64,000 nucleotides of DNA, taken from the sequence record PZ583739.1; one strand, given 5' to 3'. This DNA comes from a phage. Below are positions 1,582 to 32,098 of this stretch, one piece after another. A program made the position numbers and the translations under genes. The first letter of the stretch is position 1, and each line of letters begins with the position of its first letter. The notes under the pieces are model-generated. The model saw only the letters and a program-made list of their open reading frames with translations, was not told where the DNA came from and did no database searches.

Positions 1582-1784
1582 TATTCCACCACATATGATA
1601 ATGAGAAAATTGCTGATGAAAGATGGGTAGCATCTTCTTCACACAGTTCAAATGGAGCTTTCTGTAAGAGTTCAACCACTTCTTCATCAGTGGCACTGTC
1701 CATAAAGATTGCATAATCATTAAGATAGATAACAACCTCATCACCAGTATTAACTGCATCAATCTTGATATTTTTAATTCTCAT
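1581..1784 (-). CDS. hypothetical protein (67 aa)
   Basis: ORF preceded by an early-promoter-like sequence at about 1793-1825. Confidence 0.35.
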   Translation of the reverse strand: MRIKNIKIDAVNTGDEVVIYLNDYAIFMDSATDEEVVELLQKAPFELCEEDATHLSSAIFSLSYVVE

Positions 1785-1851
1785 TGTGTTCTCCTCAGTA
1801 GTTGATGGGATAATAGTACACCCTTTTTATGAGGATGTAAACACCCTAAAT

Positions 1852-1882
1852 GAAAAAAAAAGGTCCACCCGAAGGCAGACCT
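1852..1882 (-). terminator. hairpin terminator downstream of rI.-1
   Basis: GC stem aggtc...gacct flanked by an A9 run on the plus strand, which is a U-run on the minus transcript. Confidence 0.5.
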
Positions 1883-1888
1883 TTTGAA

Positions 1889-2272
1889 TTACTCTAGTGT
1901 TAACAGATACTTAGTCTGAAAGAAAACTCCAACGATATCGTCCAGAGTCGATTGAATAGCCTTGGGTACAACTTTATAGACTCTTTCCGAGCTTTTAATC
2001 ATTTCATCTAAAAACAAAATTGTATCTTTCGGCAAGTCCGAGGCGGACGGTAATGCAGCTTTGTATTGTTTCCCGCTGTAACCTAACCATTGCTCACTGA
2101 ACTGGTCGAGTGGACCTTGGATTTCTGTGAAGTAGAAATCATAAGCTTTATGGCGGGCGTAACTTTTGGTTTCAAGATGGGCGGACTTAAAATAAGCCAA
2201 AGAGACTAACAACCACCCAATATATGAATCCACCTCAGACCCACGACCCGTTACGAAATCATCAAATTTCAT
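1889..2272 (-). CDS. rI.-1: rI.-1-like protein
   Basis: 127 aa ORF immediately downstream of rI, as in T4; size matches. Confidence 0.5.
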   Translation of the reverse strand: MKFDDFVTGRGSEVDSYIGWLLVSLAYFKSAHLETKSYARHKAYDFYFTEIQGPLDQFSEQWLGYSGKQYKAALPSASDLPKDTILFLDEMIKSSERVYKVVPKAIQSTLDDIVGVFFQTKYLLTLE

Positions 2273-28663: not shown

Positions 28664-29185
28664 ATGAGCACTGACCTAGGAGACTCCATGGAAGGAGCCT
28701 CAATCGATGTTACGTTTACAGCTCAATTAGAAACAAACGAAACATTAGTCGAAATAAATATAACTGAATATGAGGCCACCCCTGGCGTTAATGTTGAGGG
28801 TAATCATCTTTATGGTGTTTATGAATCCGTGTTCGGATTTGCAGATGATGCGCTTAAATACCGACTTAACGATGAATTCAAAACTGCCGGTTCATGGGAA
28901 GACCTTCCTACCGATAAGAGTACTCAATTGTATCTCTGGAGGGCCCCAGCGAGCCTCCAGAAGGTCTTTTCATACACGGTAACCCTAACCTATGACTTTC
29001 AAGAAGAGAGCTCTGGTGGAGACACAGGGAGCTCTGGTGGCAGTAATAGCCGTGCAGGTAATGAGACCGACCCACCTCCTGCTCCAGTAAGAAAAACAAT
29101 GACAAAAGTTTACACAAAAACTATCGTTGGCAACTGGTCAAGATGGGCAGATAAACTGCGTTCATACGTATACGCGAGGGATTAA
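28664..29185 (+). CDS. 5.1: gp5.1-like protein
   Basis: ORF between gp5 and gp5.4; start set at first ATG after the gp5 stop. Confidence 0.45.
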
Positions 29186-29478
29186 TGGCTGGATTAAGTT
29201 TCAATCAATGTGTTACAGCAGGCCACGAAGCATGGCCACCGACTGTAATTAATGCAACTCAAGGTAAAGTATTCACCGGGGGAATTCCGGTGTTAGTTGC
29301 CGGAGACCCTATTACCGAGCATACCGAAATTAAAAAACCATATGAAACTCACGGTGGAGTAACACAACCGCGCACATCAAAAGTATTTGTTACCGGTAAG
29401 AAAGCTGTTCAAATGGCAGACCCGATTTCATGTGGTGATACTGTCGCACAAGCTTCAGGGAAGGTGTTCATAAAATGA
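29185..29478 (+). CDS. 5.4: PAAR-repeat spike tip protein gp5.4
   Basis: 97 aa, same length as T4 gp5.4; PAAR-like repeats. Confidence 0.8.
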
Positions 29479-30152
29479 ACAAAGAATTTAATTTTGTATA
29501 TGTAACTACAAACCTAGAAAATGGTAAAAAGTATATAGGCAAACATTCTACTGACGATATGTTTGATGGATATTACGGCACAGGGGAGCTTATCAAAAAG
29601 GCTTATAAAAAATATGGAAAGGATTCGTTTGAGACAAAAATAATAAAATTTTTTGATACTGAAGATGAAGCTTACGACTACGAAGAATTTTTAGTAGACG
29701 AATCTATAATTTATGATGATAGATATTATAATATAGATTTGGGTGGCAAAGGAAGTATGCGAGGAAGAAAGCATAAGGAATCTTCAAAAAAGCAAACATC
29801 AGACAAAATGAAGGGTAGGCCAAAGCCACCTAGAAGTAAAGAACATATTGAAAATTTTGAAAAAGCTATGGCCAAAAGGAGAAAACCTAAGCTACCTCCA
29901 AAACCGAGGGTTTTTGTTAGAGGAGAAGAGCATCCTTTATATAAAAGACCAAGACCTCAATCTGTTATTGACCTATGCAAACTTAATAATAGAAAACACC
30001 CCATTTGGCAATCATATGATATTTTATTCAAATTATGGAAAGAAAATGATAAGCCAGGTTGGAGAAAAATGACACGATTGGCCATTGAAAACGGATTTCC
30101 AAATACGGCTTATGACAAAATGATAAAACAATTTAAACAGGATTCAGAATAA
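29475..30152 (+). CDS. GIY-YIG homing endonuclease (seg-like)
   Basis: N-terminal [19 protein letters not shown]...YYGTG GIY-YIG motif; basic C-terminal DNA-binding half; between 5.4 and 6. Confidence 0.7.
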
Positions 30153-32098
30153 TGGCTACTCCTACGAATTACCAATTAACAAGAACCGTTAACGCTATCC
30201 CAAAAGTATTTGTGGGAGCTACGTTTGAAGAAATTAAAAAGAACATCATCGACTGGTTATCAAGCCAGGATGAATTTAAGGATTATGATTTCGTCGGTTC
30301 GCGAATGAATATCCTGATTGATATGCTTGCATACAATACATTGTATATGCAACAGTTTGCTAACACGGCAGTTTACGAATCATTTATCGGAACTGCAAAC
30401 TTAAGGTCTTCGGTTGTTCAGGCGGCACAGGATAATGGATATCTTCCATCTTCACGTTCGGCCGCAAAGACTTCGGTTATGCTGACATGTTCTCATGCTC
30501 TGCAACCATCGAATATCGAAATCCCACGAGGAACTAAATTCCTGGCCTATGCTCGTGATACATCAGCTGACCCTTATGTTTTTGTTACCACGGAAAACGT
30601 TATTGCGGTTAAAGATATTAACAACCAATACCTTCCGATTGTATCTCTAGCCCAGGGTCGTATTATTCGTACAGAACTTTTATATGACCCGAAACAACCT
30701 ATTCTTATTCGCGACCCGGATATCGACCGCAAAGAAGTTAAGTTATATGTGAACGGTGTTGAGTGGGTTGACTGGACGAACAAATCAATGGTCCATGCTG
30801 GTTCGACTTCCACCATATTTTATATGCGTGAAACAATCGATGGCTATACTGAATTTTTCTTCGGTGAAGGTGAATCCACCAAATCCGTAGCCGGCGGCGT
30901 TATGGAAGCCAACTATATTGGCGGTCTCAAACCTGTGCAAGATTCGACAATTGTTATTGAATATCTTCGCACCTCAGGGGCAGATGCAAACGGTGCTGTT
31001 GATTTCAGTTATGCCGATACTTTGTCTTATATCACAGTGGATAAAATTACTGAAAACTACAATGACGACCCTGATTATGTCGGTGCTGATGGTGGTGGTG
31101 ACCCAGAAGATATCGAACGTATCCGTGAACTGGCTGTTGTTAAACGTGAAGCGCAGATGCGTGCTGTCACCGGAACAGATTATGATACCTTCGTATCTGA
31201 AAGATTTGGTTCAATCGTGCAAGCCGTACAGACGTTTACAGACGCAAATAAGCCTGGGTATGCGTTTATATCAGTTAAGCCTAAATCGGGCTTGTATCTC
31301 ACTGCAGTGCAGCGTGAGGACATCCAGAACTACCTTAGTGAGTTCAACGTATCAACAATTACACCATCGGTAATTTCTCCGGATTATTTGTTCCTTAAAC
31401 ATAATATCAAAGTATCTTATGCGCTGAACAAATTACAAGAATCTGAACAATGGTTGCAAGCACAAATCATTAATCAGATTGACCGTTATTATATCGATGA
31501 AGTTGAAATCTTTAACAGAAGTTTTGCTAAGTCAAAAATGCTTACGTATGTGGATAATACTGACCATAGTATTCTTGGTTCGTCTGCAACCATTTCGATG
31601 GTGCGTGAAGTCCTGAACTTCTTTAAGACTCCAGAATCCGGCATTAAATACTATAACCAGTATGGCAACCGTTCAGTCGAATCAAGTGAATTTGAATTTG
31701 TTCCGACCACGGGTGAAGCCTATAACGTTCGCATTGTTGCAACTGATAAAGATTCTCGTGGTGATGGTAAAATGGTAATTGGTCCATTCCGCCCGGGTGA
31801 TGTTATTGAAAACGTAAACATCCACCCTTACCTACAAGATGACTTTAATAAAATGGAAGCTCCGGCTGACCAAACAGTTTATTACGCAATTGGCGAAATT
31901 GACTATTACTCTGATTATATTTTTTGGGATATCGCCGCGATTGGATTGACCTCCGAACGCTTTGAAGTTCAATCAATCGAACTTTATGCAAGTCCTAACC
32001 AAGATAATATATACACGCAAGATGGTTCACTGATTGTATTTGAGAATGACCTTCGTCCGCAATATACAAAGATTGACCTTGAACCAATTACACTATAA
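30152..32098 (+). CDS. 6: baseplate wedge protein gp6
   Basis: 648 aa; synteny and size match T4 gp6. Confidence 0.85.
   Translation: MATPTNYQLTRTVNAIPKVFVGATFEEIKKNIIDWLSSQDEFKDYDFVGSRMNILIDMLAYNTLYMQQFANTAVYESFIGTANLRSSVVQAAQDNGYLPSSRSAAKTSVMLTCSHALQPSNIEIPRGTKFLAYARDTSADPYVFVTTENVIAVKDINNQYLPIVSLAQGRIIRTELLYDPKQPILIRDPDIDRKEVKLYVNGVEWVDWTNKSMVHAGSTSTIFYMRETIDGYTEFFFGEGESTKSVAGGVMEANYIGGLKPVQDSTIVIEYLRTSGADANGAVDFSYADTLSYITVDKITENYNDDPDYVGADGGGDPEDIERIRELAVVKREAQMRAVTGTDYDTFVSERFGSIVQAVQTFTDANKPGYAFISVKPKSGLYLTAVQREDIQNYLSEFNVSTITPSVISPDYLFLKHNIKVSYALNKLQESEQWLQAQIINQIDRYYIDEVEIFNRSFAKSKMLTYVDNTDHSILGSSATISMVREVLNFFKTPESGIKYYNQYGNRSVESSEFEFVPTTGEAYNVRIVATDKDSRGDGKMVIGPFRPGDVIENVNIHPYLQDDFNKMEAPADQTVYYAIGEIDYYSDYIFWDIAAIGLTSERFEVQSIELYASPNQDNIYTQDGSLIVFENDLRPQYTKIDLEPITL

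Follow-up and report, generated by a model that had tools for sequence, protein, structure and literature searches.

Why does the baseplate operon of a T4-type phage carry, between two of its structural genes, a small gene that even close relatives of this phage lack? We addressed this question for the junction of genes 5.4 and 6 (5.4|6) in a 64,000-nt stretch of phage DNA (sequence record PZ583739.1; hereafter the window), where a sequence-only reading had proposed a Seg-like GIY-YIG homing endonuclease embedded in the baseplate operon. Family models, similarity to the Seg proteins of phage T4, and a presence/absence polymorphism among related phages all support this assignment. In our judgment the product of this gene, here called seg, is very probably a free-standing GIY-YIG homing endonuclease that is active and spreads by intronless homing; within the T4 Seg family it comes nearest to SegA and SegE, and that it is a nuclease we infer from its sequence.

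The seg Gene and Its Setting

The open reading frame was confirmed exactly at the proposed coordinates and on the proposed strand (Table 1). The strings FVYV, KYIGKHS and YYGTG, which had been read as a GIY-YIG module, are all found in its translation, and the C-terminal half is indeed rich in lysine and arginine: residues 95–225 contain 27% of these two residues and have a pI of 10.4. Within this half, residues 95–160 reach 36% and a pI of 11.3; the N-terminal domain (residues 1–94) has a pI of 4.6. The neighbors had been named correctly as gp5.4 and gp6, as judged by PF05488 and the gp6 Pfam domains, and gp5 and gp5.1 stand ahead of the gp5.4–seg–gp6 arrangement. Of the two 4-nt overlaps that had been proposed, the upstream one exists (ATGA, 29475–29478), whereas the downstream one is in fact a single nucleotide: in the sequence TAATG the seg stop codon occupies 30150–30152 and the gp6 start codon 30152–30154.

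Table 1. Positions of seg, its neighbors and associated sequence elements in the window.
Feature	Position	Strand	Remarks
seg-like gene, free-standing GIY-YIG homing endonuclease (very probable)	29475..30152	+	ATG start, 225 aa plus stop
Gene 5.4, encoding the PAAR spike-tip protein (97 aa); host gene before seg	29185..29478	+	PF05488, E 2e-10; phrog_281
Gene 6, encoding a baseplate wedge protein; host gene after seg	30152..32098	+	five Pfam domains of gp6, E 1e-35 to 1e-44
N-terminal GIY-YIG catalytic domain, residues 1–94	29475..29756	+	Y9, Y20, Y33/G35, E70, N86
Basic linker, residues 95–160, two short predicted helices	29757..29954	+	composition; helices 102–112, 122–134
C-terminal four-helix domain, residues 161–225	29955..30149	+	
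Gene 5.4 3′ end travelling with seg	29445..29478	+	9–11 substitutions vs empty-site relatives; stop TAG to TGA; S to G
GGGAAGG, Shine–Dalgarno-like, 10 nt upstream of seg ATG	29458..29464	+	sequence; putative function
Hairpin GUUCAU-AAA-AUGAAC, would pair seg start codon	29466..29480	+	RNA fold
AGGA at the 3′ end of the seg coding sequence, 9 nt before the gp6 ATG	30139..30142	+	
First 92 nt of gene 6, same in seg+ and seg− phages	30152..30243	+	candidate co-conversion footprint or homing-site part

The GC content of seg is 32%, that of gene 5.4 44%, of gene 6 41% and of the whole window 40%. This low value is the only property that would fit a chance or miscalled reading frame in an AT-rich spacer, a view that we give practically no credence and that is refuted by the strong homology, the confident fold and the purifying selection described below. 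A separate detail of the operon concerns gp5.1, whose reading frame as listed mechanically (28604..29185) begins with a TTG located within the 3′ end of gene 5; in public records the start lies early in VR26 and CLB_P2 and at an ATG about 35–50 nt later in P479 and dhabil, and the true start is uncertain.

Family Membership and Domain Architecture

By sequence, seg belongs to the T4 Seg family. Its product matches the Pfam families SegE_GIY-YIG (PF19835; 27.6 bits against a cut-off of 25) and GIY-YIG (PF01541; 24.3 bits against 22.6), in both cases by a small margin, and the homing endonuclease family phrog_314 over residues 1–220 with an E-value of 1.9e-42. PADLOC returned homing-endonuclease models only, among them HEase with an E-value of 1e-29; a defence nuclease was ruled out on this basis. 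The alignment to the T4 Seg proteins that the sequence-only reading had called for (sequences taken from NC_000866) extends over the full length and includes SegA to SegE, with phmmer E-values of 1e-34 for SegA, 5e-32 for SegE, 2e-21 for SegD, 5e-21 for SegC and 3e-20 for SegB. The likeness to SegA and SegE is collinear throughout, tblastn aligning 97% of the length with SegA at 35% identity: All three proteins have the catalytic layout “YIGKHST..DGYxGSG..KKYG” in common, and SegA and the seg protein additionally share the C-terminal pattern “W..W...GK.G..K...LA.E.GFPN..Y”. With SegA–E as a group, the similarity runs along the catalytic domain and takes in the DGYxGSG loop. The setting is likewise that of a Seg gene, namely a free-standing reading frame that is oriented like its neighbors and inserted between two genes which related phages conserve side by side.

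The N-terminal domain has the GIY-YIG fold, a three-stranded β-sheet with flanking helices of the type known from I-TevI and the N-terminal part of UvrC. I-TevI, the GIY-YIG endonuclease encoded in the intron of the T4 td gene, has been solved structurally (PDB 1LN0/1MK0). A profile of 19 homologues matches its catalytic domain, 1LN0, with an E-value of 0.0024; a search of the PDB sequences with the single seg sequence by phmmer gave only noise (E ≥ 1). The model of group I intron-encoded endonucleases of the I-TevI type, TIGR01453, scored 52.2 bits and thus remained under its cut-off of 56.05; moreover, there is no room for intron sequence because the seg frame overlaps both neighbors, and an intron endonuclease of this type was rejected. 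Accordingly, seg differs from I-TevI in not lying within an intron, and the Cys-rich linker segment of I-TevI has no counterpart in the seg alignment.

The basic linker that follows the catalytic domain probably comprises NUMOD3-like segments binding DNA in the minor groove, as judged from homologues that bear PF07460 (NUMOD3) and from the LC53 orthologue, which is annotated with a NUMOD3 motif. The C-terminal domain is predicted to bind DNA in a helix-turn-helix-type manner and is the probable determinant of target specificity; a Pfam search with the isolated C-terminal 135 residues produced no match even at E ≤ 10, and the fold assignment of this domain is weak.

The Catalytic Residues

Enzymes of the GIY-YIG class have a conserved arginine on helix α1 (R27 in I-TevI, R39 in UvrC) that is regarded as catalytic. 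The sequence-only reading had accordingly made its assignment dependent on the presence of the catalytic arginine and glutamate, and of these two the glutamate is there whereas the arginine is not. E70, which is invariant in the homologue alignment, aligns with the metal-binding E75 of I-TevI. The other hallmarks of the active site are also in place: Y9 of the GIY motif (here FVY) aligns with Y6 of I-TevI and is at least 90% conserved in the 19 homologues, Y20 of the YIG motif aligns with Y17 and is invariant among them, and the invariant N86 corresponds to N90, the asparagine of motif E. By contrast, the first arginine of the seg protein does not occur before residue 83. In the profile alignment, R27 of I-TevI falls opposite D28 within a loop that is shorter by about nine residues, so that helix α1 with R27 and H31 is missing and its place is occupied by an invariant, Seg-specific DGYxGSG loop that contains Y33 and G35, both themselves invariant.

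This deviation is a reason for considering that seg might be a catalytically dead or domesticated relic, which binds DNA without cutting it and is kept for the ribosome-binding site of gp6 and the overlap with the gene 5.4 stop codon that it provides. The Shine–Dalgarno motif of gp6 does lie inside seg, and according to the review by Edgell, Gibb and Belfort, host signals embedded in this manner favor the retention of an endonuclease gene (PMC2988022). However, the shortened loop “YIGxHxT..DGYxGSG” is common to T4 SegA–E, and SegA, SegC, SegD and SegE contain no arginine between the YIG motif and strand β3, although SegA, SegC and SegE belong, together with SegB, SegF and SegG, to the proteins that the same review lists as experimentally active (PMC2988022). 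Since the T4 Seg proteins share this layout and most of them are active, the missing arginine looks like a trait of the Seg subfamily and does not speak against function. The near-complete invariance of Y9, Y20, E70 and N86 also argues against a relic. Conceivably, the active site of the Seg subfamily is a non-canonical one in which the DGYxGSG loop replaces the arginine-bearing helix; K23, H24, Y33 and K46 are candidates for the compensating residue. Our literature search retrieved no statement on the missing arginine in Seg proteins.

Occupied and Empty Sites

A presence/absence polymorphism among related phages, which the sequence-only reading had suggested as a check, is clear and extends over three genera. 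Of 544 phage records with matches to the flanks, seg is present in those of VR26 and CLB_P2 alone (two each). The closest backbones, among them P479, TH41, UPEC01 and DK-13 with a flank identity of 97–98%, are without it and show a precise gap, and the same holds for more than 25 further ones; at flank identities of 92–98%, the gene is missing from P479 and more than 30 other phages. Within Dhakavirus, CLB_P2 has the gene and dhabil and dhaeg (98% identity) do not. Likewise, X20 and LC53 possess a 65%-identical orthologue that is lacking in CHI14, CBH8 and several Erwinia and Kosakonia phages (98%).

All orthologues recovered from phage genomes and metagenome contigs in these three genera, with amino acid identities from 58 to 100%, reside at the 5.4|6 junction, and the orthologues, eight or more in number, are all intact. 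Three are already annotated: VR26_163 as “segA homing endonuclease” (AIZ02800.1; 97.8% amino acid identity), UNI73014.1 of CLB_P2 as “homing endonuclease” (97.8%) and ARW58132.1 of Serratia phage X20 as “putative endonuclease segE” (65%). The gene is thus an ordinary element that is known as a homing endonuclease in these phages; a study dealing with it in VR26, CLB_P2 or X20 was not found in the literature.

A further observation comes from two T4-like metagenome contigs with a seg orthologue at 5.4|6 (SRR15128878_903 and SRR15882462_4891; L013 and L014): Both carry at 1598..2212 a gene for a 204-aa NUMOD3 protein between 5.1 and 5.4, which is the slot of T4 segC, so that the small PAAR gene has an endonuclease gene on either side.

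Transfer Between Phage Genera

The distribution of alleles shows clear signs, at the sequence level, of recent jumps between phage genera. The seg genes of VR26 (Gaprivervirus) and CLB_P2 (Dhakavirus) do not differ at any of their 678 nt, whereas the gp6 proteins of the two phages are 86% identical and the flanking DNA is only 70–80% identical (65–90% in the wider range). Similarly, the Seg proteins of X20 and of a metagenome contig (L016) are 80% identical, as compared to only 65% for gp6. The allele of the window is distinct from that of VR26 and CLB_P2 and sits on a P479-like backbone. It was found in 10 metagenome contigs and is absent from the phage collection searched; four metagenome contigs contain it without a single nucleotide difference on two backbones that diverge by about 13% just upstream. 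Identical copies on backbones that are 70–87% identical point to recent active transfer. Between the window and VR26, the seg genes differ at 23 nt and 5 aa, which corresponds to a dN/dS of 0.066 over the whole reading frame: The gene is under purifying selection. As this ratio includes the catalytic domain, and as a DNA-binding relic fails to explain nucleotide-identical copies on such divergent backbones, we consider loss of catalysis highly improbable.

An active nuclease could also serve mainly in phage competition, by marker exclusion or by attack on foreign DNA, with its spread as a by-product. Marker exclusion, though, follows from the same break-and-repair mechanism as homing and is therefore not an alternative to it. 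Moreover, the fidelity to a single site over 58–100% identity and the co-transfer of flanking sequence (see below) are the signature of homing, and the PADLOC matches include no defence nucleases. We hence regard a primarily competitive role as highly improbable and return to homing as the preferred explanation of how seg spreads.

The Co-Transferred End of Gene 5.4 and the Anatomy of the Insertion

To locate what travels with seg, we compared occupied and empty junctions without gaps, anchored on the stop codon of gene 5.4 and the start of gp6; pairwise MAFFT alignment split the insertion gap. Outside a short patch, the window is 99–100% identical to P479 for hundreds of bases. In the last 54 nt of gene 5.4 it shows 11 substitutions and, in addition, the altered stop codon. 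The mismatches are located at positions −54, −33, −30, −24, −20, −19, −18, −15, −12, −9, −1 and 0, and the remaining 290 nt compared contain a single other one (−123). At the patch positions the window matches the other seg+ alleles, all of which have the patch in common, and at −30 and −33 it has Dhakavirus-type bases. The part of gene 5.4 that always travels with seg amounts to the last ~25–33 nt. A search of the phage database returned the patch at 94% identity or more from CLB_P2 and VR26 alone, both of them seg+. All other records, with the many close relatives lacking seg among them, show at most 86%; no footprint of seg loss, that is, a patch of the seg+ type in a seg− phage, was seen above 86% identity.

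The empty site reads ...ATAAAATAG-GAAATAAA-ATGGCT in P479, ...TAG-GAATTAAA-ATG in dhabil and ...TAG-GATTTAAA-ATG in T4, with a spacer of 8 nt between genes 5.4 and 6 in each of the three; in CHI14 the two genes overlap as TAATG. The filled site reads ...ATAAAATGA-ACAAAG...CAGGATTCAGAATA-ATGGCT. The change of the gene 5.4 stop codon creates both the ATGA overlap and the start codon of seg. Seg+ alleles have GG(G/A)AAGG in place of the TCAAAAG or TCTAAAG of empty sites; this motif, a product of the co-transferred substitutions, sits in the end of gene 5.4 and costs gp5.4 the single serine-to-glycine change. At the other end, the AGGA motif near gp6 replaces the ribosome-binding site of the lost empty-site spacer (TAGGAAATAAA). 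The nucleotide sequence of the 3′ end of seg, CAATTTAAACAGGAT, is preserved in most orthologues, namely in the window, VR26, CLB_P2, X20, LC53 and L016, hence even in copies that are only ~65% identical as proteins; L012 and L013 deviate slightly.

The Winklervirus copies present a variant of this junction. In the Serratia phages X20 and LC53, seg overlaps gp5.4 by 8 nt (L004, 2501..2508; L011, 1502..1509), and the C-terminus of gp5.4 is changed from KVFIK to KVFLNG, each directly before the stop codon. The element therefore alters the last residues of the PAAR protein differently by lineage.

Putative Target and the Conserved Start of Gene 6

Taken as homing, these data suggest the following course of events. 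Upon co-infection by a seg+ and a seg− phage, the C-terminal part of the Seg protein, consisting of the NUMOD-like linker and the helical domain, would bind the 5.4/6 region lacking seg, and the N-terminal GIY-YIG domain would introduce a double-strand break nearby. Phage recombination would then repair the break from the seg+ genome, thereby copying seg together with the last ~25–33 nt of gene 5.4. As our best guess, the putative target comprises the junction and the 3′ end of gene 5.4; we favor it over the start of gene 6 because no other stretch consistently distinguishes seg+ from seg− alleles. The same difference in the end of gene 5.4 could explain how a seg+ genome is immune to its own enzyme.

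The start of gene 6 nevertheless deserves attention as the competing target. Its first 92 nt are 100% identical in 59 phage records from Gaprivervirus and Dhakavirus, in DNA that is otherwise about 75% identical. P479 and dhabil share no exact match longer than the 99 nt at this position, and the next longest measures 45 nt; the edges of the 92–99-nt block are sharp and coincide with the seg insertion point and with approximately +95. The block may represent a recognition sequence that has been conserved or a footprint left by conversion. In the latter case, conversion tracts from repeated repair of Seg-induced breaks would stop at the heterology formed by seg, and the true cleavage site would be inside gene 6. 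Going one step further, the seg lineage might homogenize this piece of the baseplate region across genera, the block being the footprint of repeated break repair; we consider this scenario, and likewise the separate idea of a non-canonical Seg active site, rather unlikely. The block is the same in seg+ and seg− phages, and a target located there would therefore leave the phage's own genome unprotected, so that the end of gene 5.4 and the junction remain our favored target.

Expression

On the + strand, no perfect late-promoter box TATAAATA occurs between 26296 and 36252; at 26296 (+), TATAAATG stands in front of gene 53. Late boxes with one mismatch appear at chance frequency, and a search for seg-specific signals found σ70-like sites and terminators at or below the shuffled expectation. 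The sequence thus presents seg as a promoter-less cassette on late baseplate transcripts, and late expression is the likely consequence. An arrangement of this kind has also been described for T4 segC, segF and segG (PMC2988022). According to this model, seg would be transcribed as part of the late operon 53-5-5.1-5.4-seg-6-7 and translated at a low level, coupled to gp5.4 through the ATGA overlap.

The hairpin at the seg start is weak (6 bp) and absent from X20-type orthologues; its 5′ arm is made by substitutions that travel with seg. It recalls the RNA structures that limit the translation of I-TevI, segB and mobE and is, with low confidence, a possible translational damper.

The start of the operon shows a feature of its own. 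The promoter in front of gene 53 is part of a palindromic arrangement, TATTTATAAATG (26292..26303), located between a divergent ORF (25811..26263, −) and gene 53 (+), which reads as a perfect TATAAATA on the − strand (26292–26299) and as TATAAATG on the + strand (26296–26303). Transcription of both late units, of which the + unit would carry seg, is probably driven from here.

Relation to Known Systems

With regard to sequence, seg is closest to segA and segE; with regard to genomic setting, it is closest to segC. SegA and SegE resemble the seg protein in length (~220 aa), and their genes are likewise free-standing and oriented as the host genes. They are, however, only 33–37% identical to it and differ in their insertion sites: segA is found between uvsX and β-gt, segE between inh/hoc and uvsW, and seg between 5.4 and 6, so that the target is presumably different. 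Furthermore, seg has no promoter of its own, in contrast to segA and segE, for which specific middle or late promoters are described (PMC2988022). T4 segC is located between 5.1 and 5.3, two genes upstream of 5.4|6 and in the same baseplate operon. It is promoter-less, overlaps the upstream gene by 20 nt and relies on operon transcripts (PMC2988022). Its GIY-YIG domain is 34% identical to that of the seg protein, but SegC as annotated comprises 140 aa and is devoid of the C-terminal domain.

The stretch from gene 5 to gene 6 of the T4-type baseplate operon is thus confirmed as a recurring landing site of Seg endonucleases, with segC in T4, seg at 5.4|6 and, in some contigs, the NUMOD3 gene between 5.1 and 5.4 as instances. 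What the comparison adds is modest, namely the identical copies across genera, the sharply bounded patch, the gp6 block and the lack of the arginine throughout the family; its main relevance is for annotation, and the current understanding of homing endonucleases is unchanged. As an apparently clean natural example of homing across genera, the locus could guide the mapping of the target site, and an active enzyme with a target in a conserved structural gene would be a possible tool for marker exchange in Gaprivervirus and Dhakavirus.

A Second Endonuclease-Like Gene

The window contains a second free-standing gene resembling those of homing endonucleases at 23603..24277 (−), which encodes 224 aa and is flanked by an ORF with a gp19-type tail-tube Pfam domain (22918..23598) and the ORF 24259..25095. 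Its product has no Pfam match, and NCBIfam gave only a faint match of the HNH region to IscB; among the T4 proteins it resembles the HNH endonucleases MobB (E 9e-25), MobD (6e-18) and MobC (2e-14).
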